Source of the DNA: a phage
Assembly: GCA_012441205.1 (NCBI GenBank)
Contig: GCA_012441205.1_4705.1
Reading direction: 5' to 3' (one strand)
DNA length: 64,000 nucleotides
The position numbers and the translations under genes were made by a program. The notes beneath the pieces are model-generated. The model saw only the letters and a program-made list of their open reading frames with translations, was not told the origin of the DNA and made no database searches. Numbering within the stretch: position 1 is the first letter of the stretch; the number at the start of each line of letters is the position of its first letter. Below, in pieces: positions 821-64,000 of the stretch.

Positions 821-1065
821 GGAGACACTCCTCTTTACCACCACCGGCTGCGGCGGTATCATCTGAACACACGAGAGACGTAATGGGTGATGGCGTCACC
901 CATCGCTTCCTTGCTTGAGGCGAGGAAGTTATTAGGTTACGTACCTGCCTGATTTTATCAGGTGGGCGATGTGTGAAGTTACGCTTCAACATTATCAATG
1001 CCGAAGGTAAACTTCGTGCATCACGTTCCAACGTAACATGGGAACGTATCGAACTGGAGGTATAC

Positions 1066-4000
1066 ATGGTAGATAAAACCCGTGTTGAGGGTGATGATAA
1101 TTGGGACAACTGGGATGAAGACTTCTCCCTGGATCTCGATTTTAACGAACCCAAAGACGATCGTAAACCGATAACACGCTTTGCGATAGGAGCGGTTAAA
1201 GGTGCTGCTGAGGATCTTACTTCCTACGAAAGAATGAAGGAGATCGCCAGAAACGCATTGCCTAAGGGCTACAGCGACGGTATGGATCTTATTGATTCCG
1301 CCGTCGGATCCACGAAGGAACTATACAATGAAGCCGTTCGTGACGTTCTTCCTAAGGTCCAAAGCTCAAAACGGTTAGCCGCACAACTGACCAAGAAATA
1401 CCGTGCGAGCATGCCCGATTTCTCGAAGAAAATTCTTGAACAATGGGAGCGAGAAGCCAAGGAAGAAGACGAACGTAAACAAGCTGAAGAAACCCTTCGT
1501 CAACGCATGGCGAGCGCGGGGGACGATGAGATCGCCCGCAAGGTTGCCGAGGCATTAGGCGAATCAGCAAACCAAAGCGCGGATCAGTTCGCTGAACAGC
1601 AAGCGAAAGAGAGTATCCGTGACGATATCGCTGACAAACGGTACGCTGTAACCAACAAACAAATGAGCGCGATGCAAGAAGGCGTCGCCAAGATGGTTGG
1701 TTTCAACAACGAATTCGCTGCACGCTACATGCGTAAAAGCCTGGAACTGAAATATCGTTCCTTAGCGATTCAACGTGCAAGTTTTGATCAGCATAAAAAG
1801 TTAGCCGAAGTCTATATCGGTTTATTACAAAACATCCAGAAGAATACGGCTTTACCTGATGCGGCTAAAGCAAAAATGTCGGAAGAATTCCGCCGTAGCG
1901 CGTACCAACGTTTCTTTGGTAATGCGTTAGATGCGATGAGTTCTTTCGAGAACCGTTTCTTTGCCGATGTTAAGAAGAACCTTGCCACCAACGCATTAGG
2001 CGCTTTAAAAGGTGTCGTGTCCGGCGCAAACGATGCGTTATACGGTTTAAACGAAGCGCGTGACTCGATGTCCATGATGGACGGGATGGGGTCAGAAGGC
2101 GATATTAAGGAAATGCAAGGAAAGATGTTGGGTCAGTTCATTGGCTCAACTGTCGCGCCGTGGATGGCTAATAAAGGCAGGATGGCGTTACGCGATTTAG
2201 CAAAACGTCACCCCAATGCTAAATTCGCTAGCGCATTAAAAGCCGTGGATCAAGGTGGTGAGGCTGCCGCTTACACGACGCGTAATCTCGGTAAACTGCT
2301 CCAGGAAGATATTCGTAAAAACGAATTCAATCTTAGCGATCCGTTTTACAAGCAATTGTTACGCGGTGCAGGGCGTTGGGCGTTCAACATGGACAGCGGA
2401 CGTAACTTCCGCGTGATGAACGACACCGCTGAAACACTGGCGGAGCAAACATCTTTCGACGGTTTAACTTACCGCAGTATCAATGAAGTTATTCCTGGTT
2501 TTCTTGCACGCATTCTGAAAAGCAGTGAAGGTATCCGCACCGGAAACAGCGATCCTGACTACGAGGTCTATGACGGCATCAGCGGACAATTCGTGTCTCA
2601 GCGCACGCGTGAACAAAGCGTCAATGACACGCTGTTTAACAAACGTACATTTGGTTATTACGCCAGCCGTTTCAACGAGGTTATCTCGGTCATCGATCCC
2701 GATAAGCAATTATCGGAAAAAGCCAGAAAGGCGCTGGCCAAGCAGTTGGCGCGAGATAGCGACGCGAACATCGCATTCGACCCGGCTCGTTTTACGGATG
2801 AAAGCAACTTCGATCGTAGTATTGACCGCGACGCTATTAAGGAACTTTCCACGTACTTTCGTGACCGTTACGGTATTCGTGATGATGTCAACGATAAGGG
2901 CGAACGTCATCAGGTCATTGGAAACCGCGGGCAATATTACACGGAACGTAACCGAGCCGATCTTCGTTACGGTCATCTGAAATCTTTACAACCGGATATC
3001 CAGCGTAACCTTAACCTGCTGAAACGTACTGGTGACGTCCAATATCTGGAACGGATTGGGATTGTAACGAGAAATAGCGACGGAAGCTACTCGGTTAATC
3101 ACGATCGGTATTTCTCTGAAATCGATCAATACATCGACCGACCGGAGTACGCTGACCGCGGCGATGTCAATACGCGATTAACCGCTCAGGAAACAAGAGC
3201 GCTGGCGCTGGGTTATCGTGACGCAAAACCATCAGCTGGTGACGTCCAAAATGTCGGCCTGCCGAACATCGGTCGTAAGGCTGCTGGAACAGTAACCGTT
3301 GATGAAAACATCGGCTACGATAAATGGTGGAACGACACAGGTGTTATCACCACATCGCTTGAAGAACAGAATCGAGCGTGGCAAGAGCTTTATCTCGAGG
3401 CGTTGTCCGAAGCATCCGAACAACGTGTTGAAATGCTTGCGCTGCTGAAAGCCATTTCTGAGAAAGACTGGTCTAATAACGTTTCGCTGGATGGTGAAGA
3501 TGTACCTGAAGGTACAGCACCCATTTCATTTATCGATCGTGCCAAACAAAAACTCGGCGGACGCAACCTGTTTAAAGGCGGCCGCAATCTCCTCTGGAAA
3601 GGAATTAAAAATACCGCACGTTTAGGTGTTAAAGGCGCACGCTGGGGTGCAGAACGCACGTTGGGTAGTTTGGTAAATTCTGGCCGACGCATTATCAATT
3701 TCAACCGCTTCGTGTTCGGCGCATTATCCAAGGTTGATCAGGTTCCGTTTGACATTTACGTTAAAGGGGAATCCCAACCACGCATACTGGCTGCCAAACT
3801 TCGTCAGGGGTTATACTTCGACGAAGCGACAGGAAAAGCCGTAAAACGGATGAAGGATATCAAAGGCCCACTCGTTGATGCGGATGGAAACATCGTAATC
3901 AGCAACGAGGATATCGAGAAAGGGTTGGTCACTCGCGCTGGTCGTGCCTTTGAGAATTCAGGACTTAAAGCATGGGCACGTGAAGGTCTTAATGGAATAA

Positions 4001-7000
4001 CGACGGCATTAAGTCTCCCACGGATGTTAAAACGCGGTGCGGTTGAGATCTACAAACAGCTTGACAAAACACCCGACGTTTACGTCAAGGGAGAATCAAC
4101 GCCTCGTCTGTTGTCCATGGTGTTAGCAGCGGGTGGGTATTTCCGTCGCTCGGATGGACAAGTCATCAAAAATCTTGAAGACATCGATGGTGATGTTGTT
4201 GATGCACAAGGTAACGTCGTACTTACGCTTGCCGACATGCAGAAAGGACTTGTCGATAAATACGGTAAAGCGATTCGTCGTTTAAAAGAAAAGCTCATCA
4301 ACTTCGGTGTAAAAGCTTTTACGTTACCGTTAACGTTGCTACGTAAGACAAAGGACATCCTTAAAGCCCTTCCAGGTAAAACCGTTAACGGTCTACGGCG
4401 GATGGGATTAAATTTCCAATCACCCGACGCATTACTGGTGGGAACAACGTCGAGCATGGTAGATCGCCTCGATGCTATTTACCAGCTTCTTGACCAGCGT
4501 ATGCCGGGAGGTGATAAGGATTACCGCGATTGGAATGGCGATGGTGTTCGAGAAGGATCGTTGGAAGACCTGAAACGTAAGCGTGAAGCCAAGGAAAACG
4601 GTAAGGATGACATCGGCAAAGATTCCAATAAAGGAGAAGAAAAGGAGAAGAAACGAGGGTTACTCGGAAGCCTTTTCGATATGCTCGGTGATACCGCAAT
4701 AGGTAAACGTCTCATGGCGAGTCCGCTTGGAAAAATTCTGGGTGGTCTTGGGGCGGTGTTAAGCGGCGGTGCGTCGTTAACTGGGTTGTTGGGCAAAGGT
4801 CTCATTAGAGGAACCGGCGCGCTGGTCAAGGGAGGACTAAGTGCGGCAGGATGGTTAGGACGTGGTGCGTTAATGGCGGGTGGGGCCGCGTTGAACGCCG
4901 TTGGTGGGTTATCGGGATTAGGTGCATTCCTCATCTCACCTGTTGGGCTTGCTATCGCTGGCGGTGCGTTGGCTGCTTATGCTGGATGGAAGATCTATCA
5001 GCATTTCGCCGAGAAGCCTGACCCGATGCAGAAGCTCCGTCTTATTGCATACGGTGCAAAAGGGGATGATAAAGACTTCAATAAGAAGCTGCTTGCGACA
5101 GAAACATACCTCACCGACCATGTGGTCATGACCGGGGATACCATCGGATTCGATCCGAAAGCCGATTCTGAAAAGATTCTCGAAATCTGGGAATTGTCTC
5201 TGGAAGATTCCGACCGAATGAACGAATGGAAACGCTGGTATCTGCATCGTTTTATTCCTGTTTTCGCTCGTGCGTACAAACTCTGGAAAGAGCATATGCC
5301 GGACGAGAAGAAATACATGGAAATGGATAAATATCCGAACGGTGAGAACAAAGTGAAATGGTCGGAAGCGTTTATCTGGCCTTCCGATAGTCCTGATGGT
5401 CCGTATTACGTCGAAGCTAACCCGTTGGGTTCTTCTGGTGCGACGCGTTATATTGCTGGTCAAGACGTCAAAACCTTGATGCTGAAACAGCTCGAAGCCA
5501 TCAAGAAAGAGTACCAGAATCAGATTAAGCAATACACTCATGATGAGGCTATTGCTGATTGGTCACGGATGTCTGACACACAACGTAAATCCGTTGCGCC
5601 TAACGCATTACGTGGTCAGAAAGCGTCATTACGTTTTAACGATAAACGTTACAACAGCGCTGGTGCTAAAGGACGACAGAAACTGGATGCAACCGCGGTT
5701 ATTGAAAGCGTAGACCGTCGTGGTAGAAAATGGGTTGCCGGTGGATACATCGATGAACTCACCAGTCTCCGTGTTCGTGCGTACGGTATTAAGGTTCCGT
5801 TGTTAAGTCAGATAAAAGTGCTGATGGAACTCGAAGACGCTGTAGAACCTGGCGTTGTCGCTGAAGGTAAAGGTGTTAAATACGGTGGCGATCTTGTCGC
5901 GCTCTACAAGAAATTCGCGACGAAGTTCGGAAGAGACGTTAACAGCAAGCATGATCAGGATATCTGGTTTGCTTGGATGAACAACCGTTTCCTGCCCGTC
6001 TTTTTAACCTATTACCAACAAGTTAGCGACATGGGCGGTCAAGGACTTCTGTCCGACGTGGTACAGAACCTGAAAGACAGCCAACGTTGGGAAATCGGTG
6101 AAGAACTTGTCGCAGCGCAATACCGTGATGAGAAAGGTACACTGCAGCCCGTATGGTCGTGGAACAGTTGTGGTTTCTCCGGTACTGAAGCTAACACCAC
6201 CAGCAGTTCAACAAAGAGTCAGCTCGATCTGTTAAAAGAATATGCGGATAAAGAGAAGGTTCGTGAGAAGAACGCGGAAGCATCGCAAGAGGATACCGAT
6301 AAATTATCGAAGATCCAAGAGCTGATGATGAAGCAGGCTGGGTACGAGAAGAAAGACGGTGTCTGGCAGAAGAAATCTCGCATTACCGGCGGGATGAGTA
6401 ACTCCGAAGCGAATTACAACCCCAATGGGAATAAGGTCGGTGCAAGCAGCTTTACTGCTTCAGCTACTTCCAGTGCGGGATTGGGGTCAACCGGCGATCT
6501 TACCGGATTGCCTAACATGGGCTTACAGAAACCTGCAACGGGGCCAGGTCCCGAAGCTGGACGTCGTGCGCTTGTTAAATCCGCTGTGAAACGCGGTATT
6601 ACCGATCCAATGGAAATGGCGATGTTCCTTGCAAACATCGAACATGAATCGGGGAACTACACTCACGTACGTGAGGGGAACTATAAGACACCAGAGCATC
6701 TTAAACAGGTCTTCCCTTACAAATTCCGTGACGTGCAGGATGCAGCGCAGACGATTAGCATGGGGCCGGAAGCGGTGTTCGAACGCGTGTACGGTAATCG
6801 TAAAGACTTAGGGAACACGCAGAAAGGAGACGGGGCGAAGTATTTAGGACGTGGCTTCATTCAGGTTACCGGTAAAGCTAACTACGCTCGTCTGTCCAAG
6901 ACCTTGAATAAAGATCTTGTCAGCGATCCATCATACCTGGAAACGCCGGAAGGTGCGGCGGAAGGTAGTGTCGCGTGGTGGCTCAACCGAGGCAATGTGT

Positions 7001-7731
7001 TACGCGATCCTGCGAAACGGGGTGATGTGCGCCAAGTTCGTTATCTGGTTAACGGTGGCTATAATGGATTACGTGACGTTGAACAGCGCTCTGCTTATTG
7101 GATTCAGGCGGCTAAGAATGGCACCCTGAAGAAAATGATGGATGAGTTATCGGGATCAACATCAGGCGATCAAGCTGAAGGACCGACTACCGCCGAGCAG
7201 GTGAAGAATGAAGCAGCCCAAGAGGCAAACGGAACGCCAACTGTAAGCAACGATCCGCAAGCCCCAGCACCTTCAACCACCCCTGAAGCTAAACCGTCTG
7301 CGGCTGCCGGTACGGCTCCAGCACCCGGAGAAGCATCACCAGCGCCTGGAAGTTTCGAAACAGCGAAAGCTGCGGCAGGACAACCGACATCAACGCCAGC
7401 ACTTAGCGATTTGCCGTCAAACCCTGGCGCAAATCGAGGGATATCGGTTCCGAATACGCCTGCACAGGTCGCGCAGTCTGCGACACAAACATCGGCCGCG
7501 AGTGAGAACTTCTACGGTAGCGCAGGTGAAATTCTCCGACAGCAGCTGACCACGCAGCAGAACATCGAGAAGAACACCGGTAGAACGAATGAACTTATTT
7601 CGGAATTAATCCAAGCCGTTAAGGGTTCTTCTATCGGTAAGGGTTCTGCAAGTCCTTCTCAACAACAGGCGATGTCGCTACCTAATCGTCCGCAAGGAAT
7701 CTCTCCAACACGGACAAGGTACGCGCAGTAG
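1066..7731 (+). CDS. giant virion-associated protein (~2220 aa) with Gly-rich hydrophobic segment and C-terminal GH19-like peptidoglycan hydrolase domain
   Basis: Single uninterrupted ORF (track 973..7731, GTG); preferred start ATG 1066 with GGAGG 5 nt upstream. Architecture resembles tape-measure or ejected cell-wall-degrading proteins of large phages. Confidence 0.8.
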   Translation: MVDKTRVEGDDNWDNWDEDFSLDLDFNEPKDDRKPITRFAIGAVKGAAEDLTSYERMKEIARNALPKGYSDGMDLIDSAVGSTKELYNEAVRDVLPKVQSSKRLAAQLTKKYRASMPDFSKKILEQWEREAKEEDERKQAEETLRQRMASAGDDEIARKVAEALGESANQSADQFAEQQAKESIRDDIADKRYAVTNKQMSAMQEGVAKMVGFNNEFAARYMRKSLELKYRSLAIQRASFDQHKKLAEVYIGLLQNIQKNTALPDAAKAKMSEEFRRSAYQRFFGNALDAMSSFENRFFADVKKNLATNALGALKGVVSGANDALYGLNEARDSMSMMDGMGSEGDIKEMQGKMLGQFIGSTVAPWMANKGRMALRDLAKRHPNAKFASALKAVDQGGEAAAYTTRNLGKLLQEDIRKNEFNLSDPFYKQLLRGAGRWAFNMDSGRNFRVMNDTAETLAEQTSFDGLTYRSINEVIPGFLARILKSSEGIRTGNSDPDYEVYDGISGQFVSQRTREQSVNDTLFNKRTFGYYASRFNEVISVIDPDKQLSEKARKALAKQLARDSDANIAFDPARFTDESNFDRSIDRDAIKELSTYFRDRYGIRDDVNDKGERHQVIGNRGQYYTERNRADLRYGHLKSLQPDIQRNLNLLKRTGDVQYLERIGIVTRNSDGSYSVNHDRYFSEIDQYIDRPEYADRGDVNTRLTAQETRALALGYRDAKPSAGDVQNVGLPNIGRKAAGTVTVDENIGYDKWWNDTGVITTSLEEQNRAWQELYLEALSEASEQRVEMLALLKAISEKDWSNNVSLDGEDVPEGTAPISFIDRAKQKLGGRNLFKGGRNLLWKGIKNTARLGVKGARWGAERTLGSLVNSGRRIINFNRFVFGALSKVDQVPFDIYVKGESQPRILAAKLRQGLYFDEATGKAVKRMKDIKGPLVDADGNIVISNEDIEKGLVTRAGRAFENSGLKAWAREGLNGITTALSLPRMLKRGAVEIYKQLDKTPDVYVKGESTPRLLSMVLAAGGYFRRSDGQVIKNLEDIDGDVVDAQGNVVLTLADMQKGLVDKYGKAIRRLKEKLINFGVKAFTLPLTLLRKTKDILKALPGKTVNGLRRMGLNFQSPDALLVGTTSSMVDRLDAIYQLLDQRMPGGDKDYRDWNGDGVREGSLEDLKRKREAKENGKDDIGKDSNKGEEKEKKRGLLGSLFDMLGDTAIGKRLMASPLGKILGGLGAVLSGGASLTGLLGKGLIRGTGALVKGGLSAAGWLGRGALMAGGAALNAVGGLSGLGAFLISPVGLAIAGGALAAYAGWKIYQHFAEKPDPMQKLRLIAYGAKGDDKDFNKKLLATETYLTDHVVMTGDTIGFDPKADSEKILEIWELSLEDSDRMNEWKRWYLHRFIPVFARAYKLWKEHMPDEKKYMEMDKYPNGENKVKWSEAFIWPSDSPDGPYYVEANPLGSSGATRYIAGQDVKTLMLKQLEAIKKEYQNQIKQYTHDEAIADWSRMSDTQRKSVAPNALRGQKASLRFNDKRYNSAGAKGRQKLDATAVIESVDRRGRKWVAGGYIDELTSLRVRAYGIKVPLLSQIKVLMELEDAVEPGVVAEGKGVKYGGDLVALYKKFATKFGRDVNSKHDQDIWFAWMNNRFLPVFLTYYQQVSDMGGQGLLSDVVQNLKDSQRWEIGEELVAAQYRDEKGTLQPVWSWNSCGFSGTEANTTSSSTKSQLDLLKEYADKEKVREKNAEASQEDTDKLSKIQELMMKQAGYEKKDGVWQKKSRITGGMSNSEANYNPNGNKVGASSFTASATSSAGLGSTGDLTGLPNMGLQKPATGPGPEAGRRALVKSAVKRGITDPMEMAMFLANIEHESGNYTHVREGNYKTPEHLKQVFPYKFRDVQDAAQTISMGPEAVFERVYGNRKDLGNTQKGDGAKYLGRGFIQVTGKANYARLSKTLNKDLVSDPSYLETPEGAAEGSVAWWLNRGNVLRDPAKRGDVRQVRYLVNGGYNGLRDVEQRSAYWIQAAKNGTLKKMMDELSGSTSGDQAEGPTTAEQVKNEAAQEANGTPTVSNDPQAPAPSTTPEAKPSAAAGTAPAPGEASPAPGSFETAKAAAGQPTSTPALSDLPSNPGANRGISVPNTPAQVAQSATQTSAASENFYGSAGEILRQQLTTQQNIEKNTGRTNELISELIQAVKGSSIGKGSASPSQQQAMSLPNRPQGISPTRTRYAQ
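4680..4990 (+). other. Gly/Ala/Leu-rich hydrophobic segment (GxxxG-like repeats) inside giant protein; probable membrane-inserting region
   Basis: Translation GLLGSLFDMLGDTAIGKRLMASPLGKILGGLGAVLSGGASLTGLLGKGLIRGTGALVKGGLSAAGWLGRGALMAGGAALNAVGGLSGLGAFLISPVGLAIAGGALAAYAGW. Confidence 0.5.
6560..7130 (+). other. GH19-like (chitinase/lysozyme family) catalytic domain within giant protein
   Basis: Motifs FLANIEHESGNY, YLGRGFIQVTGKANY, GSVAWWLNRG and YLVNGGYNGLRDVEQRSAYW match GH19 signatures (HET/HES catalytic region, GRGPIQLSWNYNY, AIWFWM). Confidence 0.65.
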
Positions 7732-7780: not shown

Positions 7781-9922
7781 ATGGGTATTCTTGTTCAAAA
7801 CGCCCTAATCACCAAACAGGCGTTTTTATTACCGGGCGATAGCAGCACGCTTAGTGCTGACATGATTAAAGCGAGACATACACCGTATTCCTACGATAAC
7901 GTCGATGATACCACCTTAGGCGGGAACTGGGTGCTTAACCCACCACCGCAATATACCAAATTTGCCGACATCAAGGAACGCCGACGTGCGGTTATGCCTG
8001 GATCAACGGGCATGGGCCGAGGCTATAGTGAAAGCATTAACAGCTTTAAAGAGGTCGTTACGTTACGATTCGGTAAACCTCGCTTTACAGGCGCAAGTAT
8101 CTTCTTTACTGATTTCTACGATGCCGATGTTGCCGTAACGGTTAAAACCGGTCGCGATCCCGGTATTCTTTATTACGCAGCCAAAGCGTATACCACCGTT
8201 CTTTCTTACCTCACACCTCTACCCTACTTGTATATGGTTGGACGTATCGGTCGATATTTCCTGGGTAAGCCTACCAGTCAATATTACTATCAAGTACCAA
8301 CCATGCACGTGTATTGGGCGTCTTTCCAAACGCTGGTAAACCAAACAGCGATAAACATGGGTCTTATCGCCGGTGCCGGTAAAGATAAAGGCTATGTGGA
8401 AGAAGGGGGTACCGTACTCCACCAATATTCAATCGGTGGTCAGAACGTTGAAGAATTCATCAACTACGCCTCTAAGACGCTACCGGGGATTTATAAGAAA
8501 GGTGGTGGGATCGATATCTACCAGATCGCAACACGACGTCAGCGCATACAGAACGCATGGGTACGTCGTATTCAATCCATGATGGAAAACGATTACTCGT
8601 CTTACGAGGAGTTCTGGAACGATCTTGATAAACGACTTGATAGCGGAGCATTTCCATCGGATGTAACCGGCCGTACGTTAACGCAGTATCTCGCCGACAC
8701 GCAGAAGTCTGCTGTTTACAGTGCGACAGCTGGTGATAATAAACAAACGATGGACGACCTTTTATTTGGAAGAGCCTCGTACACCAATAAAGATGCCGAT
8801 GCTAACTTCAATGTCTCAGCGGCTACCTCCGACGGCGGTACGTCAACACAGAGTCAGGGTACAACAGCCAATGTCGGTAATTCGACGTCAGGGACAACGC
8901 AGGCTTCAACAACAGCATCAACGGCTGGAGGCGCGAACGTACAGAGCAAAGGAATCGGTCAAACGAACGCAGCCGAAGAAGCTACGTTTCTTGATCTGAT
9001 GGATGCTGAACTGGCCGATGGTGCTCAGTTTATCAGTTTTCGAGTCGACTCTGTCACCAGTGTAACCGAAACGTTTTCAAACAGCGCTTCAGAAAGTTCA
9101 ATCGCACAGACGATGAATAGCCGTGCACAAGCGAACATCGAACGTCGTTTCACCCTCTCCGGTGGTAATACAGGTTGGGCTGTACTAGACGAAGCCATCA
9201 AAGCCGGTTCCGATCTCGTTAATGGTGCTATTTCCGGGATGGGCCTGGATGGTATTTTTGGTGCCTTCATGGGTTCCGGCTTCGCCGACATTCCGAAATT
9301 CTATTCCGGATCATCGGTAAGTCTTCCGCGTGCAGATCTGACGATGGAATTGCGTTCCTGGAGCGGGGACCGCTGGTCGATCTTTACGAACCTCATGGTA
9401 CCTCTTTTAGCGATCCTTGCAGGTGGTTTACCTCAGGCTACCGGTAAATCGTCCTACGGGATGCCGTTCATGTGTGAGTGTTATATTCCAGGTAAAGTCC
9501 AGATTAAAATGGGCCTTATCGATAATATCACTGTGACGCGCCATGTTGGAAACGTACCATCAACACGCGAGCGATTACCGTTGGGGATCGACGTCAGCTT
9601 CAGCGTTTATGACCTGTCGTCTATCGTCGCCATGCCGATCACAACGACGGCCGCATCGATCGCAAAATTGGATCCTCGTGGCTTCTTAAGCGATCTTCTT
9701 GCTGACGATACGCCGCTCAACAACTATCTTGCTGTATTATCAGCATTGACACTTACGGAACAAGTTTACATGATTCCGGATTTAAGTCGTCGCATGCATA
9801 AAACCATGGCTGATATCGATAGTTTCTGGAGCAAAGGTAATTTTGCTAGCTGGTTGTCTGACACCATGCCTGGCAGGATAGCATCAGGGCTGTTATGGAA
9901 ACGTACAGAACGGCCGTTCTGA
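7781..9922 (+). CDS. hypothetical protein (713 aa), Ser/Thr/Gly-rich central region; possible virion protein
   Basis: Long ORF, ATG with GAGG upstream, immediately downstream of giant virion gene on same strand. Confidence 0.7.
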   Translation: MGILVQNALITKQAFLLPGDSSTLSADMIKARHTPYSYDNVDDTTLGGNWVLNPPPQYTKFADIKERRRAVMPGSTGMGRGYSESINSFKEVVTLRFGKPRFTGASIFFTDFYDADVAVTVKTGRDPGILYYAAKAYTTVLSYLTPLPYLYMVGRIGRYFLGKPTSQYYYQVPTMHVYWASFQTLVNQTAINMGLIAGAGKDKGYVEEGGTVLHQYSIGGQNVEEFINYASKTLPGIYKKGGGIDIYQIATRRQRIQNAWVRRIQSMMENDYSSYEEFWNDLDKRLDSGAFPSDVTGRTLTQYLADTQKSAVYSATAGDNKQTMDDLLFGRASYTNKDADANFNVSAATSDGGTSTQSQGTTANVGNSTSGTTQASTTASTAGGANVQSKGIGQTNAAEEATFLDLMDAELADGAQFISFRVDSVTSVTETFSNSASESSIAQTMNSRAQANIERRFTLSGGNTGWAVLDEAIKAGSDLVNGAISGMGLDGIFGAFMGSGFADIPKFYSGSSVSLPRADLTMELRSWSGDRWSIFTNLMVPLLAILAGGLPQATGKSSYGMPFMCECYIPGKVQIKMGLIDNITVTRHVGNVPSTRERLPLGIDVSFSVYDLSSIVAMPITTTAASIAKLDPRGFLSDLLADDTPLNNYLAVLSALTLTEQVYMIPDLSRRMHKTMADIDSFWSKGNFASWLSDTMPGRIASGLLWKRTERPF

Positions 9923-9931
9923 TATTCACTG

Positions 9932-9977
9932 CATAAACCCCCTCTCCCTTCCCTGCTGGGTTGGGAGAGGGATTATG
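9932..9977. repeat. GGAGG-stem palindromic hairpin element (family copy) at convergent gene junction
   Basis: CATAAA-CCCCCTCTCCC-ttCCCtgctGGGtt-GGGAGAGGG-ATTATG; lies between the stop of the + gene (9922) and the stop of the - gene (9978). Confidence 0.6.
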
Positions 9978-11045
9978 TTAACCTAACGTCACCGTCGGTA
10001 AATCAGGATAAAGTTTCTTCAAGCCTGCCATCGTGGTGGTAGTTGTATAATTCTTACCCATCGCAGCAAGAGATGCGTATTTCCTACTGCGAGAGAAAAG
10101 AGAATAGAACCCACTGGATGTTTCCATCCACATCGTGAGGAGTTCTGCATCGTTACCGTGATAGTTCGTTTTACCCCATCCAGGTTTAAACGCATCGGCA
10201 AAATCAATTAAACGCGAGGCTTCAGCGTCGTATTCTTTAAGGGTAAGGTACGATGGAATGCGGTAGTTACGAAACAGTAACGTAATGAGTTCAGGGACAA
10301 CGCTACGGGCACGTTCAGCCGTGATAAGTTCGGTGATCACAGCAGCTGTACGGAAATCGCCGTTAAGACCAACGCTGCTTAACGATTCCGCTAAAGTGGT
10401 CGCCATCGCCACTTTATCCTCCGCTGACCCAGAGTCATACAGACTACGCACATCGATGTAGTTGCCTGCTAATGCGGCTTGACGAATCAACGATGTGACA
10501 ACTGTCCGGTTCGTCTTATAGTCGTTGTAACTGAATTCGGTTCGCGTTTTCCCTTGATCGTCGAGATACCGATCGACAATCGTTGAAAGTTTATAATACT
10601 CATCGCCCGACATCAGACTATCGAGAAGCTTAACGTTTCCATCTTTATCAATAAGCTTCCCTAACGCACCATTGGATTGCTGGTTAATGGTACTGTAAAT
10701 CTGGTCTTTTACTTGCGATAGAATGTTATCGGTTGACGATATATTCAGGCCAGTAACATCTTTGATCTTATTCATCAACGCGTTTTCATTCAGGGAGATT
10801 TTGCCTCCGCTGATATCGATGAAAGAATTAAGATCGCTTATGGAAATCAGGTTTCCTGTTAACGCCGATAATGTACTATTGATACTGTTCGTAATACTGC
10901 TGCGAAAACTGGTTAACGCATCCGCCGCTGAAACAGCGGTACCGCTAACCGCTTTAAGGAGCGTATCACGCCCTGTCGAAAAATCGCTGGTGATGGTTTT
11001 GATCTTGGACGTATCTATACTCGGCAGTTTGTCGTAAAGACTCAT
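9978..11045 (-). CDS. hypothetical protein (355 aa)
   Basis: ORF track 9978..11096; preferred start ATG 11045 with AGGAGG 5 nt upstream (MSLYDKLPS...). Confidence 0.65.
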   Translation of the reverse strand: MSLYDKLPSIDTSKIKTITSDFSTGRDTLLKAVSGTAVSAADALTSFRSSITNSINSTLSALTGNLISISDLNSFIDISGGKISLNENALMNKIKDVTGLNISSTDNILSQVKDQIYSTINQQSNGALGKLIDKDGNVKLLDSLMSGDEYYKLSTIVDRYLDDQGKTRTEFSYNDYKTNRTVVTSLIRQAALAGNYIDVRSLYDSGSAEDKVAMATTLAESLSSVGLNGDFRTAAVITELITAERARSVVPELITLLFRNYRIPSYLTLKEYDAEASRLIDFADAFKPGWGKTNYHGNDAELLTMWMETSSGFYSLFSRSRKYASLAAMGKNYTTTTTMAGLKKLYPDLPTVTLG

Positions 11046-56775: not shown

Positions 56776-59685
56776 ATGAACGATATAAATAAAGGGCGCG
56801 TCGCCCTCGAACGTCAAATGAGCAATAATGACGTTGCGAAGGCACTCATGAACAAATTTGTCGCTCCTGCTCCGCAGTCACGTCTTTATAATACACGTGA
56901 TGCGGAAGGAGCGAACGGTCGTTTCGGGTTAGTTGTTCCCGACCAAATGACGATGAACACGGTTACGCGTGCTACCGCGACAAACATCGAGGATAATAAA
57001 AACATCCTCGAGCTGTTCCCTGAACTTAAACGCGTGATGCAGATCTATGTTGCCGCGTTGACGAACCCTAACGATCTTAAGACGGTCGAGATGTTTATCG
57101 ACAGCGAAGATTTCCCCGGCAGAGTCGCAGAAATCGTTCAGCCGATGATCGATACCATCGACACGCATTTTAAGAATATCTATAAAATAAAGACGCTTAT
57201 CCCTCGTATCATCGAAGACGTCTTCTTTATCAAGGGCAGTTATAACTTCGTTGTTCTGCCGGAAAGCACGCTCGACCGCGCCATTAATGGTAACGGTCAA
57301 CTGAAACTTGAAGAATACGGATTTAAAGACAACCATTTTGCAAGTTGGGGGCTTCTAGGTAACGACAGTCGCAAACGCCACGAAAATCAATTACCTGCGA
57401 CGGTTTCGATGGAAGATTATTTCTCGGGTGTTAATGAAACCATACCGTACGATCCTGTTGTTCGCATAGACAGCATCAAGTTTACCAATACCCTGCTTCG
57501 CGATAAGGACGGTAAATTCATTGAAGCGAAGATCGATATTCCGGATATGGTTACGGTTGTCGATAACCCAGACATCCTCCGCATGCCTATTCTGCATCAA
57601 CGTCGAGCAGCGACAGCAGTGCAGCGTGCGTTACGCGCAAACACGTTAGGAGGTAGTGGTTTGGTAACGCTGTCAGGCGATCCGACCCTAACCGCTAACC
57701 GACGTGAGCTGTCGCAAGAACAGGTTAACGAGATCTGGAATAAGCTCAACATCCAGCGCCACACCAAGGTATCGCCCGTTTACGCGCTGGCAACCCCAGA
57801 TACGCTTGATCGTCAAAGCGTTGGCCATCCTGGCGTGATGCATGTACCACCTGAGGCATTAGAACCCGTACATGCGCCCGGTGATCCTGAGAACCATATC
57901 GGGTATTTGGTTCAGTTGGATGAGTTTGGTTATCCAGTACGTTTGGTTGAAGATGCGGCGTATTACAAGCAGTTGGAAGGTCGGTTGTCGAAGATCACCG
58001 CAGATATCGCAGGTACGTCAAGCAACGGCATGGCGAGCGAGATGATTGGTGCAGCCAAGAACATGATCCAAGGTACGTCATGTAATCAGGTAGACATGTC
58101 GGCCTTCGTATCATCGTACGAATCGCTGATGCAACGTTACATTGTCGAACGTATCGTTAACGGTTATCTTGGCAGTGCGGTGGAGATCGGTGCGACATCA
58201 TCGTTTTATCTGTCGATGCTTGCTCGTAGCCTCGCTCACAAGCAGACCCGTGTTTTGTTTATTCCTCGAGAGATGGTGACTTACATCGCCTATGAATACA
58301 ACAAATACGGTATCGGTCGTTCGCTGCTTGAAAGTACGAAGATGATCTCATCGCAACGAGCCATGCTCATGGTTCAAGAACTGATGGCGAAAATCAAAAG
58401 TTCGTTGAACTATACGACGCTAAGCGTAATGCTTGAAGACACCGACAGAAACCCGGTCGATACCGTCGAACAAGCACTGCATAGTTTCGCTCGTGTCTAC
58501 CAGTCTGGTTTCCCGTTGGGTGAAACTAACCCGATGGATATCATCAACGCGTACGAACGAAGCTCGATTAGATTGAAGGTTGAGGGGAATAACCCACGCT
58601 TCCCGAAATTGAATACAGACGTCAGTGTTGAGCAGCGTAACTATCAGTCTCCTGATAATGAGCTGATGGATCGTTACCGTCGTGACCATTTCATGGGCTT
58701 GGGTGTGTCTCCGGAGATTATCGATACTTCCTACCAATCTGAATTCGCAGCTTCTGTGATTACAGCTAACGCGATGCAAGAGAAACAGTTCACGGTTTGT
58801 CGTGAGGTGATCACGAATGGGTTATCGGACCACATCAAGAAATATACGGCATACAGTCCCGTGTTGTTGACGTCGTTACGAAACACGGTTCGTGCGAACA
58901 TGTCTAAGCTTTCCCAGGCACAATTGAAGCAGCTTTTTGGTAGCGATTTCGAAAACGGTGTTATCCGTAACGTTAACGCCTATCAGGAGATTGACGACCA
59001 ATCAGCAACAATGGATCTGGATTACACTAAACCAGAAGTCCAGGAAGTTATTGCCGATGCTTATGTGTCCATGTTCTTAAACAGCCTGCGTGTGCGTTTA
59101 CCGGATAGCAATGCCCGTCGCCTTGAAGATCAGGTACGTGAATATAATCAGTACAAGGAAGCGATTACTGCGCAACTTGATGATTATTTAACGCCTGATT
59201 ACGTCATGGGTCTGGGTGGGGTTGATGAAACAACGCTGCAGATGATCCGCGCATGCATTATTGGTACCGCGATGCGTACGTGGGCAAAAGAGAACAACTT
59301 CAATCAGGAGCTGGCTGATCTCTTCAGTCTTGACGATAAGAAGAATGCCGTGCAAGATTGGAAACGTATGTCCATGGAACATATTGAAGTCATGGGTAAA
59401 TGCATGGGTGATTTTGCATTGTATATTCAGAATCTGACGAAGAAGATTGAAGAGAAGATGGGAGCTCAAGCACAGGACGGTAGCGTTTCATCTGATGGTT
59501 CGTGGTCATCCGATTCAAGTAGCGATACCGGTTCTTCTGATGACTTCGGTGGCGGTGACGATTTCGGAGATACCGATTTCGATACCGAAACGATGGAGGA
59601 AACCTCAACAGAAGAAACAACCACATCTGAGGAAACGACGACCGACACAACGTCAGAAGACGACACTTCAGGTGACATTGTCTAA
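56776..59685 (+). CDS. hypothetical large protein (969 aa) with acidic Ser/Thr/Asp/Glu-rich C-terminal tail
   Basis: ATG 56776 with AAGGAG upstream; C-terminus SSDSSSDTGSSDDFGGGDDFGDTDFDTETMEETSTEETTTSEETTTDTTSEDDTSGDIV. Confidence 0.65.
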   Translation: MNDINKGRVALERQMSNNDVAKALMNKFVAPAPQSRLYNTRDAEGANGRFGLVVPDQMTMNTVTRATATNIEDNKNILELFPELKRVMQIYVAALTNPNDLKTVEMFIDSEDFPGRVAEIVQPMIDTIDTHFKNIYKIKTLIPRIIEDVFFIKGSYNFVVLPESTLDRAINGNGQLKLEEYGFKDNHFASWGLLGNDSRKRHENQLPATVSMEDYFSGVNETIPYDPVVRIDSIKFTNTLLRDKDGKFIEAKIDIPDMVTVVDNPDILRMPILHQRRAATAVQRALRANTLGGSGLVTLSGDPTLTANRRELSQEQVNEIWNKLNIQRHTKVSPVYALATPDTLDRQSVGHPGVMHVPPEALEPVHAPGDPENHIGYLVQLDEFGYPVRLVEDAAYYKQLEGRLSKITADIAGTSSNGMASEMIGAAKNMIQGTSCNQVDMSAFVSSYESLMQRYIVERIVNGYLGSAVEIGATSSFYLSMLARSLAHKQTRVLFIPREMVTYIAYEYNKYGIGRSLLESTKMISSQRAMLMVQELMAKIKSSLNYTTLSVMLEDTDRNPVDTVEQALHSFARVYQSGFPLGETNPMDIINAYERSSIRLKVEGNNPRFPKLNTDVSVEQRNYQSPDNELMDRYRRDHFMGLGVSPEIIDTSYQSEFAASVITANAMQEKQFTVCREVITNGLSDHIKKYTAYSPVLLTSLRNTVRANMSKLSQAQLKQLFGSDFENGVIRNVNAYQEIDDQSATMDLDYTKPEVQEVIADAYVSMFLNSLRVRLPDSNARRLEDQVREYNQYKEAITAQLDDYLTPDYVMGLGGVDETTLQMIRACIIGTAMRTWAKENNFNQELADLFSLDDKKNAVQDWKRMSMEHIEVMGKCMGDFALYIQNLTKKIEEKMGAQAQDGSVSSDGSWSSDSSSDTGSSDDFGGGDDFGDTDFDTETMEETSTEETTTSEETTTDTTSEDDTSGDIV

Positions 59686-59770: not shown

Positions 59771-60043
59771 TTACGAGGTTAACCACGATTCAATTGTGGT
59801 GAGTTTGCTTCTCAGTACGCGCCAACTAGGGTGTGGTGGGATCACAGCGCCTTTGTCGATTACGGTTAACTGAACCTGGTACTTCTGCTGCATACGCGCT
59901 ACCGTGTCGCTTATCGAGAGGAAAAGCTGGTAACGTTCATATGCCGTCAGTTCACTGTCCTGTTGAACTGCGTTGGCCGCTAACGTAATTTCGCGTAAGT
60001 CCTTTGCATCCACAGAGACGGTAATGAGTTTATATTGACTCAT
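59771..60043 (-). CDS. hypothetical protein (90 aa)
   Basis: ORF. Confidence 0.5.
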   Translation of the reverse strand: MSQYKLITVSVDAKDLREITLAANAVQQDSELTAYERYQLFLSISDTVARMQQKYQVQLTVIDKGAVIPPHPSWRVLRSKLTTIESWLTS

Positions 60044-60104: not shown

Positions 60105-62663
60105 TTACTGCTCTTCACGTTCCAGCAGATACTCGGAAGCGGTAATACCGTTTACCGTACGTACTGCTTTCAGACGAGTATCATCGCTCAGAATTACAGT
60201 AACAGATTGCAGACCTTTTACTTTGGTTTCGAAGGTCTTGAACACCTGATCCAGCATACGAGCAATGCTTGGGTTGGTTGCAGCCGATGCGTGGGTGTAA
60301 CCGCTTTGGTTCAGCTTCAGAATCTTGGCGTTGGTCGGTACGCGAACAACAACATGCGGACGCATCGCGAACACGCTATGATTAAACCAGTAAGCATCGT
60401 TGCTATCTTCGTCGGTAACGATGTCTGGATTAACACGCATATCCTCGACAGCCGCATCCGCCAAACGACGTTCGATTTCATCGGCGTCCAGAGAGCCATC
60501 TTTCTCCAGTTCTGCACGATACTCACTCATGGCAACCAGATGACGTTCACGATTCGCTGCGGATTTTTCGTGAGCGGCTTTCAGGTAGTCATGCATGTTG
60601 TACAGTTCTGCCATGGAAAGACGAATGTTCCACTGACCTTCGCCGTCACGATTGCAGTAGAGACACTTCAGCATGTTGACCCAGGTATAGTAGCAATTGG
60701 AGAATTCATCTTCAATGAACTTCTGGTCCATTTTAAGATCGTGAATCAGCCAACCGGACAGTTCTCCGATATCATCAACGAAGCTAGAGATGGTGGTTTC
60801 AGAGAAGTTCTTCGGTACGATACGTTTGATCAGCTTATTGACGTCTTTGGTCATGCTATCGTTCAGGAAATGCCAGATACGCAGAGGAATAACATCTCGA
60901 TACTGTTGCATGATCTGACGATAAGCTTTGATATCGTCGCTACGACCTTTATCAATAGACAACGCATCCAGGAATTCATGGATTGCATCCAGCTCTTTGT
61001 CGGTATAGGTTCCCAGATAGGAATTGACGGTGGCAAGGAATGCTAATGCGTCGTTTTGGTTGACGTCGGTGTTGGTCTGCTGAATGATTGCCACTGAAGC
61101 TTTGGTTTCAGCATCCTCAACGCTTGACGCTGCGATTGCGTCGGTGACGGTAAACAGTTTCATTTCGCGCTGCTCACCGACAACGATTGGCTCACGTTGA
61201 ACCGGTTTGTTAAGACTAACACGAACAACTTCTGCTTGCGCGATACGATCCAGTTTTGCCATTTCCTGCTCTGCCATACGACGAGCGGTTGGATCTGATT
61301 CAAGTTCGATGTATTCCACTTCTTCCTCCGTGAGGGATGTAATGTCAACAATGGTTTCATGAAGAATTCCGTTTTCGTCGATACGTGCTCGACGAGCGAA
61401 GTGCCTGAAGTCATACAACGTCGGCCAACGACTATTAGGTGCAAAGTCTTTGGCTTTCAGACGCATCTGCATAAATTCTTCATGTTGAACAACACGACCG
61501 TAACGCTTAGCATCTTCGGTCGCATCAATTGGATTAACGGTCTTTGTTACCGTAGCAGAACGAGCCGTACGAACGGGTTCCGGTTTCACCTGCGCAGGTT
61601 CAGGTTGAACGGGTTTCTGCTGCCCAGCCTTAACATGCCATTCTGGCTCTTCGTACTGTTCAGCAAACTGTTCAGCCGCTGCAAAGATATCGTTGATACC
61701 ACCAATATCTCCTTCAGGATTTGTCGAGTAAATCCGTGGTTGTGGTGCCTCGTAACGCGGCGCTGTAGTAGCAGGCACCTCATCAACGATAGGATCGTCA
61801 TCACCAACATCATACAAACGGTTGAACGCACAATCCTTCGAATCAATGTACGATGGCGCTTGTGGTTGGACAACCGTCGGCCGAGGTTGTGCACCGTATC
61901 CTGGTGTTGTTGGAGCCATGCCGCGCATAACTGCCGGACTAGGTTGGTATTGCGGTTGCGGATAGGTTCCACCATACATAGCGTACGCAGGCTGTTGTGG
62001 TTGACCATACCCGTTGCTAACCATCGCGCTTGCTTGCGGCCCACGATAAGTCATCCCCATCTGCATCACCTGCTGCTTCAAACCACGTGACTTCTGAGCG
62101 ATTTGCGCTAGGCTTCCGCTTTTATTCAGCTGCGTGTACTTATTCGCGGCTTCCGGGTTAATGCGTGATAATTCGATCGCGCGATAATATTCCGGGTACT
62201 GATTCGGTTCAAAGAGCCACGTTACAAGGTGATACAGCGCAACTGTGCTCACAGCAGCAGAGACGATCTGGTCGTCGGACGCGTTCTGCGGCATCGGGTT
62301 GATGTAAGAGAATACGTTCCAACAACAGTCTTCAACAAGCGATTCCATCATCATATCGTTATTGGTATAACGTGCGACGAACTCGGTTTGTATTTTGTCT
62401 TGCTGAGCGAAGTCTTTCAGGACATTAAAGATGGCTTGACGGATTTTGACGATCGTCGCTTCTTGGGTGATGAAGTTATAGTTCTGCTGATATGAGGGTT
62501 GTTGGTATTGTGGTGGTTGATAGGCGTTATTCGGGTATGCGCCGTACGGAGATTGCTGATACTGTTGCTGACGAACCTGTTCAGCCGCATAATTAACCGT
62601 GCTCGTATAAGGGTTTTCGCTATAACCCATTTGTTGATACATGTTGTTACTGCCATTATACAT
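60105..62663 (-). CDS. hypothetical protein (852 aa) with Gln/Tyr/Pro-rich low-complexity N-terminal region
   Basis: ATG 62663 with AAGGA upstream; N-terminus YQQMGYSENPY...QQQYQQSPYGAYPNNAYQPPQYQQPSYQQNYN plus further PQ/Y-rich stretches. Confidence 0.65.
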   Translation of the reverse strand: MYNGSNNMYQQMGYSENPYTSTVNYAAEQVRQQQYQQSPYGAYPNNAYQPPQYQQPSYQQNYNFITQEATIVKIRQAIFNVLKDFAQQDKIQTEFVARYTNNDMMMESLVEDCCWNVFSYINPMPQNASDDQIVSAAVSTVALYHLVTWLFEPNQYPEYYRAIELSRINPEAANKYTQLNKSGSLAQIAQKSRGLKQQVMQMGMTYRGPQASAMVSNGYGQPQQPAYAMYGGTYPQPQYQPSPAVMRGMAPTTPGYGAQPRPTVVQPQAPSYIDSKDCAFNRLYDVGDDDPIVDEVPATTAPRYEAPQPRIYSTNPEGDIGGINDIFAAAEQFAEQYEEPEWHVKAGQQKPVQPEPAQVKPEPVRTARSATVTKTVNPIDATEDAKRYGRVVQHEEFMQMRLKAKDFAPNSRWPTLYDFRHFARRARIDENGILHETIVDITSLTEEEVEYIELESDPTARRMAEQEMAKLDRIAQAEVVRVSLNKPVQREPIVVGEQREMKLFTVTDAIAASSVEDAETKASVAIIQQTNTDVNQNDALAFLATVNSYLGTYTDKELDAIHEFLDALSIDKGRSDDIKAYRQIMQQYRDVIPLRIWHFLNDSMTKDVNKLIKRIVPKNFSETTISSFVDDIGELSGWLIHDLKMDQKFIEDEFSNCYYTWVNMLKCLYCNRDGEGQWNIRLSMAELYNMHDYLKAAHEKSAANRERHLVAMSEYRAELEKDGSLDADEIERRLADAAVEDMRVNPDIVTDEDSNDAYWFNHSVFAMRPHVVVRVPTNAKILKLNQSGYTHASAATNPSIARMLDQVFKTFETKVKGLQSVTVILSDDTRLKAVRTVNGITASEYLLEREEQ

Positions 62664-62697
62664 TTCTTACGATCCTTTTTATTTATTCGGTTATGTG

Positions 62698-64000
62698 TCA
62701 ATCGATTATGTCGTGATCGTTAATTTCTACAATTTCTTCATCGAATCGACCGACGTCTTTCTTCAAGCCTGCATTGGTTGCTGCAACGTCATTTGCAATT
62801 TGTGGGGTAATGATTAACCGACCGCGCTCATCGATAGGTGCGTACATACTGAACTTCTGACGTCCGGTTGGTTCGGAGTGTGGAAGATTCAGATAGCTTG
62901 CACAGAACGGGATGGAACCACTAACCAAACGACTCTCGTCAGCCAATGCAGCACCGCCTGCGTTTTGGCTCTGGAGAACAACATGCGTGCTCACTTTGAA
63001 CAGCATGCAATCACCCGGTGACTGAATCGATGTTGCCACTTTCTCACGTTTATCACGATTGCTCTGGATATTGAGAATCGCTTCCGTTGCAACTTGATTT
63101 CGCAACGCCTTCTGTACATCACGATTGGTCATCTCTTTACGGTTGTTCTGTCGTTTACCACGTTCTGTGGTTTTAAGATGGAACCCCAGTTTAAAGATGC
63201 TCTTACGCACATCCTCCATGACATATTCCAACACCATCAATTCCTTACCGAACATCGTCGTGGTATCAACACGACTCATTTCGATAGTGACATTGTCAAT
63301 CAGATACGCCATAAATTCGTAGAAGTCGTCGCAAGGAATATTTTCCTGTTTGAACTTCTTCTGTTGAATTTCATCAACGTAAAGATCGAGACTGTCGATG
63401 TGGTGGTTTACATCACGCAACAAACGCGCATCCGCGTTGTTGTTATTAAAGATAATCAAACCGAGTAATGTACGCCAATGGTCTGGCGCATTCGCGAACT
63501 CTTCAACCGGATAGTCTTCCGGAAAACGATCGTAATAACGGTCGATGAGATACAAGAATGCACCGACAAGGCCAAGAACAATACGTTCCGTGCCTCCACG
63601 TCTTACTGCAATTTGAATATCAGGATGTTTGTAACGTACAGCGCTAGCGCTACGGCTTTTACCGCTTTTGCTGATACTAAAACCTTTAGGAATAACCCCC
63701 ATGGTGCGATAGATTACCCATTGGTCACGCGGAAAATCACGTTCAGCAAGGTTCCGTCCGGTTACGGCTTCGACACCTGCAAAACGTCGGAAACACTCAC
63801 CCACCCCGTACTTCGCAAAGAGATAGTGACCCAGTGTGGTTACGCTGGTGTGGTTGATGTTGTCACCGTTCACTTTACTTTGTTTGGTAAGATGATAGAT
63901 TTGTGACCAGGGTAATGACAGGTAATGACGATAATCGATACCGGTCGGTGTATCATTGCTCAGGAACTGATACGGTGTACGTTTAACCGTGATTTTGTCA
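62698..64000 (-). CDS. multisubunit RNA polymerase beta-like subunit, C-terminal part (gene begins beyond window end)
   Basis: Frame stays open upstream of track start 63873 to position 64000. [20 protein letters not shown] resembles beta [37 protein letters not shown] resembles GGQRFGEMEVWALEAYGA; about 300 aa of extra C-terminal sequence. Confidence 0.5.
   Translation of the reverse strand, partial: [433 protein letters not shown]

Follow-up and report, generated by a model that had tools for sequence, protein, structure and literature searches.

An 852-aa protein of a jumbo phage begins with about 60 residues made up largely of glutamine, tyrosine, proline and asparagine. Its gene lies at positions 60105 to 62663, on the minus strand, of a 64,000-nt stretch of phage DNA (GenBank assembly GCA_012441205.1, contig GCA_012441205.1_4705.1), here called the window. 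The window is 98.2% identical in DNA sequence to Escherichia phage vB_EcoM_Goslar (genus Goslarvirus), a nucleus-forming jumbo phage (chimallivirus) with E. coli as host, and the protein is 98.9% identical to Goslar gp38 (Goslar_00038 / HOV27_gp038), which is annotated as 'hypothetical protein'. We refer to the protein as gp38. On the strength of gene order, profile comparisons and a predicted fold, we put the probability at roughly 85% that gp38 is a very divergent, Goslar-lineage member of the JADA family, consisting of an N-terminal tail, a helical N-domain, a disordered linker and an acidic C-domain with the fold of PDB entry 9RP3.

JADA (phiKZ gp124, Pa36 gp316, PDB 9RP3) was described recently (Mol Cell 2026, PMC12931631). 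It is essential, expressed early, abundant and specific to the Chimalliviridae, with phiKZ_124 as an orthologue, and its gene is always downstream of a gene for a subunit of the non-virion RNA polymerase (nvRNAP). The published layout comprises an N-domain, a disordered linker and a dimeric C-domain. In cells infected with Pseudomonas chimalliviruses, JADA forms foci at the early-infection (EPI) vesicles, and a role in early transcription has been suggested for it (PMC12931631).

The gp38 locus

The open reading frame is a complete coding sequence plus stop, with an ATG start, and occupies exactly the coordinates given for it in an earlier reading made from the sequence alone (the sequence-only reading). 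Reading the sequence directly, an AGGA ribosome-binding site is found at 62673-62676, 9 nt 5' of the ATG, within a spacer of 34 nt that separates gp38 from the gene upstream. A short spacer at this place is typical across the family loci described below. The features of the locus are as follows, each with the evidence on which it is based:

62698..64000 (−): 3' part of the nvRNAP subunit gene (Goslar gp39), which leaves the window at its end (PHROG 2943, tblastn)
62664..62697 (−): spacer of 34 nt, with the AGGA site at 62673-62676 (sequence read directly)
60105..62663 (−): orthologue of Goslar gp38, a probable divergent member of the JADA family of phiKZ gp124 and Pa36 gp316 (open reading frame, synteny, profile, fold)
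62478..62663 (−): N-terminal low-complexity tail, aa 1-62 (composition, predicted confidence <50, aromatic spacing)
62070..62477 (−): N-terminal helical domain, aa ~63-198, probably the JADA N-domain (predicted helices H56-201, hhalign)
61827..62069 (−): second low-complexity tract, aa 199-279, the probable polar core of the JADA interdomain linker (composition, predicted confidence ~25)
61458..61826 (−): aa 280-402, where the linker goes on as an acidic, proline-rich segment of net charge −9 (charge, predicted confidence 25-40)
61656-61694 (−): short predicted helix in the linker, aa 324-336 (AF2)
60108..61457 (−): C-terminal domain, aa 403-852, net charge −21, with a predicted JADA C-domain fold (hhalign, hidden Markov model, AF2 and Foldseek)

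The gene directly upstream on the same strand, gp39, codes for the nvRNAP subunit orthologous to phiKZ gp123. It matches PHROG 2943 'polymerase' with E 8.5e-75, and tblastn matches PHIKZ123 and annotated nvRNAP subunits. The RNA polymerase-like neighbour named in the sequence-only reading is thus real, and its gene ends at 62698, immediately ahead of the start of gp38 at 62663, both on the minus strand, as is the rule for JADA. The listing of gp39 as a 391-aa frame with a GTG start is an artefact of the window edge, because the frame is open to the edge and the Goslar gene has 598 aa; a truncation of the nvRNAP subunit gene was ruled out, since the frame continues past the edge. Elsewhere around gp38 in Goslar lie genes for the portal (gp36), the baseplate wedge (gp35) and the major capsid protein (gp41).

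Directly downstream of gp38 is a 90-aa open reading frame (59771-60043, minus strand; Goslar gp37). It has no family assignment; a Vps51/Exo84_N line of 17.6 bits, under the 24.2-bit cut-off, was ignored.

The compositional bias of the tail is strong. Residues 1-60 contain 23% Q, 18% Y, 12% N and 10% P, with 5-7% charged residues (23%, 19%, 13% and 10% for residues 1-62), and the best 60-aa stretch of gp38 is 65% Q/N/Y/P, as against 33% or less in the other 51 large open reading frames of the window. In residues 200-260 proline makes up 16%, Q and G 15% each, and M, Y and A 11% each; 3% are charged. This second bias, placed at aa 200-260 by the sequence-only reading, is likewise real, and by composition it extends slightly more widely, over aa ~199-279 (P 16%, Q 14%, G and A 11% each, Y 10%, M 9%). 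Over all positions of the window, the binomial expectation of the first tract is ~1e-10 and that of the second 5e-11.

Both tracts are predicted to be disordered. In a full-length AF2 model the predicted local distance difference test (pLDDT) is below 50 for aa 1-56 and 25-40 for aa 169-422, compared with 64-76 for aa 61-160 of the N-domain and 60-78 for parts of the C-domain. This model, built from an 11-sequence alignment, is poor (pLDDT 46) and was used for the contrast between order and disorder and for a first Foldseek pass. In a charge-hydropathy plot, the tail and aa 280-402 fall on the disordered side, and the second tract is borderline. Together the polar core (199-279) and the acidic, proline-rich extension to residue 402 give a linker of ~205 aa, within which one short conserved helix is predicted (AF2 H324-336).

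Tyrosine or phenylalanine recurs about every 5 residues in the tail, in degenerate YQQPx-like units, and this spacing is more even than in shuffled sequences (P=0.002). No tandem repeat was found at the DNA level beneath these units. Close relatives of gp38 differ in the tail by insertions and deletions of Q/P/Y units with the composition kept; an extra QPQYQQPPYQPQQP-type block is present in P0003 and P0004.

The tail was described in the sequence-only reading as prion-like and as resembling phase-separating domains, and only the second half of this description fares well. A true prion or amyloid domain, which would switch JADA to a self-templating aggregate, could be suspected from a tail in which Q, N and Y abound and charged or aliphatic residues are scarce, a composition that resembles the N domain of yeast Sup35. 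The criterion for a Q/N-rich domain reportedly set by Michelitsch and Weissman in 2000 is at least 30 Q+N per 80 residues, and gp38 misses this cut-off with a maximum of 26. The strict prion reading is disfavoured because proline is abundant (10% in the tail and 16% in the second tract) and Q+N is under the usual cut-off. The even spacing of the aromatics, a pattern that a 2020 study argued to prevent aggregation, also speaks against it, as does the lack of a repeat in the DNA, and selection for an inactivating aggregation is unlikely in an essential early protein. We regard an amyloid switch as very improbable. The resemblance to phase-separating domains is supported by the even aromatics.

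Assignment of gp38 to the JADA family

The evidence for a relationship to JADA comes from gene order, profile comparison and predicted structure. After the gp123-like RNA polymerase gene, phiKZ has gp124 (721 aa) and Klebsiella phage Eowyn has _00146 (790 aa); both show weak collinear similarity to the C-terminus of gp38, and each has its own Q/P/Y/G-rich stretch. The synteny sample was enlarged to 52 loci (50 from IMG/VR plus phiKZ and Eowyn), anchored solely on the RNA polymerase gene because circularity was to be avoided. A same-strand open reading frame of 612-863 aa follows that gene in 51 of the 52 loci, and the remaining contig ends too early. We refer to the proteins encoded there as slot proteins.

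A profile of the Goslar group was then compared by hhalign with one of the 44 other unique slot proteins. Local alignment paired gp38 403-849 with family columns 324-678 at a probability of 99.6% (E 4.4e-25), and a reversed-template control gave E 0.004, confined to a low-complexity stretch. Three C-terminal sub-segments of gp38 each matched on their own, in the same order along the family (E 1e-7, 8e-10 and 2.5e-4). The two low-complexity tracts of gp38 did not align with the family in this comparison. A global hhalign result of E 5e-37 was not used; local mode with controls was preferred. Since gp38 itself was not among the hits of a plain hidden Markov model (HMM) of these 44 proteins, the comparison was based on hhalign, checked with reversed controls, and on an HMM of the C-domain. 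The latter, built from non-Goslar members only, matched the Goslar-type proteins P0004 (E 4e-14) and P0005 (E 2e-22).

The family profile matches PDB chain 9rp3_A, 'Gp316/JADA', end to end (E 1.1e-142). Other PDB profile matches, to TFIID TAF10 (E 7e-4) and LSm11 (E 0.04), fell on profile positions 106-311, the linker region, and were judged compositional.

The predicted structures point in the same direction. For the full-length AF2 model, 9RP3 was the sole PDB match found by Foldseek (E 8e-5). A model of the C-domain (aa 395-852; pLDDT 71.9, predicted TM-score 0.68) matched 9rp3_A and 9rp3_B with E 1.6e-11 and 7e-11 and TM 0.50-0.52 over ~450 columns at 14% identity, and the next PDB match among 350,542 chains had E 0.52. 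In BFVD there were 24 significant matches, all to uncharacterised proteins of 514-981 aa, and those with a named source were all from jumbo phages. The net charge of the C-domain is −21 in gp38 and on average ~−20 in the family. Furthermore, gp38 has the JADA layout, with two predicted folded domains and a long disordered linker (from pLDDT and the family domain mapping), and it occurs in a chimallivirus genome, matching the restriction of JADA to the Chimalliviridae.

Several results weigh against the assignment. The N-domain of gp38 aligned with family columns 49-128 at E 3.7e-5 and a probability of 71%, a weaker link than that of the C-domain, and an N-domain HMM had no match to the Goslar-type proteins. 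The TM of 0.50-0.52 is at the edge of confidence for a same fold, the AF2 alignments were shallow (9-11 sequences), and identity to 9RP3 across the C-domain is low. Used alone, gp38 belongs to no family of Pfam or PHROGs, and phmmer found no match for it in the PDB.

The limited reach of sequence searches is apparent from other results as well. A word-indexed search with gp38 returned only four relatives, of 80-99% identity, and three word-indexed searches recovered hardly any members of the family, also when the low-complexity regions had been taken out. Goslar-type proteins were all that an exhaustive HMMER profile search over 1.84 billion representatives found; it added one more distant relative (P0005) and a fragment. 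A Cas9_C_2 match to gp38 (18.6 bits, under the 27-bit cut-off) was rejected. An identity with ChmC was ruled out: Goslar ChmC is gp176, and the fold of gp38 matches 9RP3 only. Matches to 'gp38' together with Goslar in the literature were to phiKZ gp38 or to the receptor-binding gp38 of T-even phages and are irrelevant.

If gp38 is JADA, its two tracts are the N-terminal tail and the interdomain linker of the family. On this assignment, the first tract is a lineage-specific, enlarged, Tyr-rich version of the family's tail, and the second is the JADA linker.

The presence of gp38 in virion preparations raises another explanation for the tracts, namely that JADA is packaged and injected, with the disordered tracts aiding capsid packaging or passage through the tail on the way to the EPI vesicle. 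HOV27_gp038, at 97.09 kDa the mass of gp38, was detected in Goslar virions purified on caesium chloride, with 26 peptides and an estimated 17-39 copies per virion (Table S4, 10.64898/2026.04.21.720040), and the gene lies among head, portal and baseplate genes. The same preparation, however, held chimallin, ChmC and PhuZ, which its authors explain by nucleus fragments and filaments that co-purified (10.64898/2026.04.21.720040); gp38 is absent from the 28-protein virion model; and orthologues are classed as non-structural and as synthesised anew by 10-15 min, the Churi orthologue being among the non-structural proteins present at 15 min. A large JADA-containing assembly that co-sediments could equally account for gp038 in the preparation. 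We consider delivery with the virion improbable.

The assignment matters because nucleus-forming jumbo phages cannot do without JADA, which is also the protein that sets off the Avs5 defence. The C-domain of Pa36 JADA triggers by itself the Sir2 NADase of P. aeruginosa Avs5 (PMC12931631).

Selection and aromatic spacing in linker and tail

The linker was mapped in the 44 other members (21 clusters) with sub-HMMs of the N- and C-domains. All 44 have one, 53-188 aa long (median 122). Q, G, P and R are commoner in the linkers than in the folded domains, and L, K, I and C are much rarer. Two chemical types are found. The polar type, nearly uncharged and composed of Q/G/P/N/A, comprises 32 sequences in 15 clusters, with repeats such as GGFNQGG, GWGQQ or YQQP-like units. 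The polyampholyte type, composed of R/G/D/E/S, comprises 12 sequences in 6 of the 21 clusters, about a quarter of the slot proteins (L014, L017, L022, L025, L026, L028, L032, L035, L039-L041 and L045); 34-54% of its residues are charged, R reaches 30%, and RD, RG and RGRY repeats occur, as in RDRGRGRDRDYDRDDRGG. That a low-complexity linker of one or the other type is present in all 44 other members is a new, if modest, observation. Homologues keep a biased composition while the sequence diverges, which, together with the predicted disorder, favours the sequence-only reading.

Most members also have an N-terminal tail, with a median of 35 aa and rich in P, Q, M and N. Long Q/P/M/Y tails are found in lineages other than that of Goslar (L043, L047, P0009, P0010). 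LPFDP-like and NPPFVP-like motifs occur in non-Goslar tails (L007, L013, L030, L034, L002 and others), and may serve there as linear motifs for binding. Neither is present in the Goslar-type tail.

These motifs bear on the possibility that tail and linker are a docking platform, on which short linear motifs would bring in partners from host or phage, for instance nvRNAP subunits or factors of replication, division or translation, and would not self-associate. Besides the motifs common to non-Goslar tails, the short conserved helix in the gp38 linker would suit such a role, as would the results of antisense silencing of PhiKZ124, which had a weak plaque phenotype but strongly affected phage transcription at 30 min. 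These silencing data, like the early presence of the Churi orthologue, also accord with the published description of JADA. In addition, phiKZ gp124 is reported second hand to have been recovered in pulldowns of host DnaX and FtsZ, in a statement of PMC11849849 that cites Van den Bossche 2014. This pulldown claim reaches us through the citing paper, the Goslar tail lacks both motifs, and the only known partner of any member, Avs5, binds the C-domain. We think a docking platform unlikely.

Both tracts of gp38 are translated and, judged by substitution rates, under purifying selection. Relative to a Goslar-like relative, the ratio of non-synonymous to synonymous substitution rates (dN/dS) is 0.07 for the tail and 0.09 for the second tract, as against 0.15 for the N-domain. 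Across the family, aromatic residues are retained in the linkers (6.8%, compared with 8.5% in the domains), whereas aliphatic residues collapse from 22.7% to 8.5%. With one representative taken per cluster, the aromatics were evenly spaced in 19 of 19 testable linkers, of both types (sign test p 2e-6, Stouffer Z −4.1). As a control, no other residue class was evenly spaced in the linkers, and Q, G and D/E were clustered. Evenly spaced aromatics in a polar, low-charge, disordered context are the sequence signature of a sticker-and-spacer region, and the gp38 tail shows it.

The synonymous rates also vary along gp38. Between gp38 and the protein encoded at 8211-10802 of locus L006, dS is 2.1, 1.16 and 1.03 for aa 1-62, 63-198 and 199-279, and 0.24 and 0.14 for aa 280-402 and 403-852. 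This mosaic suggests a recombination breakpoint near aa 280 (window ~61825) and thereby the exchange of tail, N-domain and linker core as one module.

The main rival account of the tracts is that of a passive entropic linker and tail, in which length and flexibility alone count, self-association plays no part and the composition is what a non-aggregating spacer tolerates. The linkers cannot be aligned and range from 53 to 188 aa, two chemistries (Q/G/P/N and R/G/D) fill one position, and the tail varies by insertions and deletions among close relatives, all of which would be expected of a spacer; moreover, the C-domain triggers Avs5 unaided and purified JADA is a soluble dimer. Against this, dN/dS in the tracts (0.07-0.09) is no higher than in the folded N-domain, aromatics are retained and are the sole evenly spaced class in 19/19 clusters and both linker types, and the Goslar lineage enlarged its tail and did not trim it. 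We see a passive spacer as a real possibility, a little short of an even chance, and in that case the finding would be one of ordinary annotation.

Because of this purifying selection, and because aromatics are retained and evenly spaced, the tracts may be more than spacers and may have a condensate-type sticker-and-spacer role. We put this forward tentatively, at somewhat under even odds. In the mechanism proposed, tail and linker would act as sticker-and-spacer regions, in which evenly spaced Tyr/Phe/Trp would provide weak multivalent self- or hetero-association. Such contacts would let the C-domain, which is dimeric in Pa36 JADA, gather more readily, and without aggregating, in dynamic foci at the site of early transcription or at the EPI vesicle. 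The JADA foci seen in infected cells are an indirect hint in this direction.

Four points weigh against this condensate step. Pa36 JADA was purified as a soluble dimer, and droplets are not mentioned (PMC12931631). The C-domain alone suffices for activation of Avs5 (PMC12931631). The evenness of the aromatics in the second tract of gp38, taken alone, is not significant (P 0.17). Finally, the two linker types are chemically very different, so selection may act on disorder alone.

A more specific proposal is that tail and linker build a phage condensate at the EPI vesicle or nascent nucleus, a sticker-and-spacer scaffold which would concentrate newly made nvRNAP and early transcripts or would act as a gate for traffic in the manner of FG-nucleoporins; some members carry GGFNQGG or GWGQQ repeats. 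We hold this specific form to be doubtful. If it were true, the polar and R/G/D linkers would be two evolutionary solutions to one material requirement, and a JADA condensate would be a counterpart in bacterial viruses of the transcriptional and pore condensates of eukaryotes, and would offer a mechanism for an essential protein. In any case, the published 'disordered linker' can be recast as a conserved low-complexity element with even aromatics, two types and purifying selection, and this linker grammar together with the identity of gp38 gives a testable hypothesis on how early JADA foci form.

Three other low-complexity segments were observed in the window. The portal protein (Goslar gp36; 56776-59685, plus strand) has at aa ~905-969 an extremely acidic S/D/T/E-rich tail, …SSDGSWSSDSSSDTGSSDDFGGGDDFGDTDFDTETMEETSTEETTT…, which is the lowest-entropy segment of the window and lies mostly past the crown domain (residues 778-923 in a cryo-EM preprint). 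A 2252-aa open reading frame (973-7731, plus strand) has a G/A/L-rich, glycine-zipper-like stretch at aa ~1240-1330, …GKILGGLGAVLSGGASLTGLLGKGLIRGTGALVKGGLSAAGWLG…, possibly a membrane-active or tape-measure-like segment. A 713-aa open reading frame (7781-9922, plus strand) has an S/T/G/A/N-rich low-complexity linker at aa ~340-400.

Comparison with known systems

One comparison is with E. coli SSB, whose folded oligomeric domain is connected to a functional end by a flexible linker rich in G, Q and P. The string 'GQPQQP' is known from SSB and is found at aa 220-225 of gp38. The resemblance is one of composition only: gp38 lacks an OB fold, and an acidic tip motif was not recognised in it.

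FET-type and other prion-like domains (FUS, EWS, hnRNPA1) share with the gp38 tracts a polar Q/N/G/S/P context, few charged or aliphatic residues and evenly spaced aromatics, and GGFNQGG-, GWGQQ- or RGRY-type repeats occur in some JADA members. There is no homology, and the gp38 tracts differ in being short (62 and 81 aa), proline-rich and under the Q/N cut-off.

Within the chimalliviruses, a parallel in kind is ChmC (Goslar gp176, PhiPA3 gp61, PhiKZ gp67), the RNA-binding protein of the phage nucleus. It too has low-complexity disorder and, like JADA, forms puncta in infected cells; its disordered region drives RNA-dependent condensates in vitro. ChmC differs in being the product of an unrelated gene, with a Whirly fold and with a C-terminal tract that is N/G-rich and acidic, and condensation has been demonstrated for ChmC only. 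The view that a composition like that of gp38 is unusual in phage proteins therefore holds only in part, given the N/G-rich condensate-forming region of ChmC and a JADA linker already published as disordered.

Compared with the JADA proteins of Pa36 and phiKZ, gp38 is ~14% identical in the C-domain, a relationship missed by single-sequence searches. It has 852 aa rather than 721, with interdomain disorder of ~205 aa rather than ~100, and its tail of 62 aa is Tyr-rich, whereas that of phiKZ is ~44 aa and P/N/Q-rich. The host of gp38 is E. coli, no Goslar orthologue is named in the text and supplements of the JADA paper (PMC12931631), and Avs5 activation, the dimer, the timing and the localisation come from Pa36 and phiKZ only. 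In common they have a gene directly 3' of, and on the same strand as, a gp123-like nvRNAP subunit gene, an arrangement of N-domain, disordered linker and C-domain, an acidic C-domain with the 9RP3 fold (predicted in gp38), and a chimallivirus genome. The probable assignment to JADA of an unannotated Goslar gene, across ~14% identity, would make E. coli and Goslar a genetically tractable system for the study of JADA.

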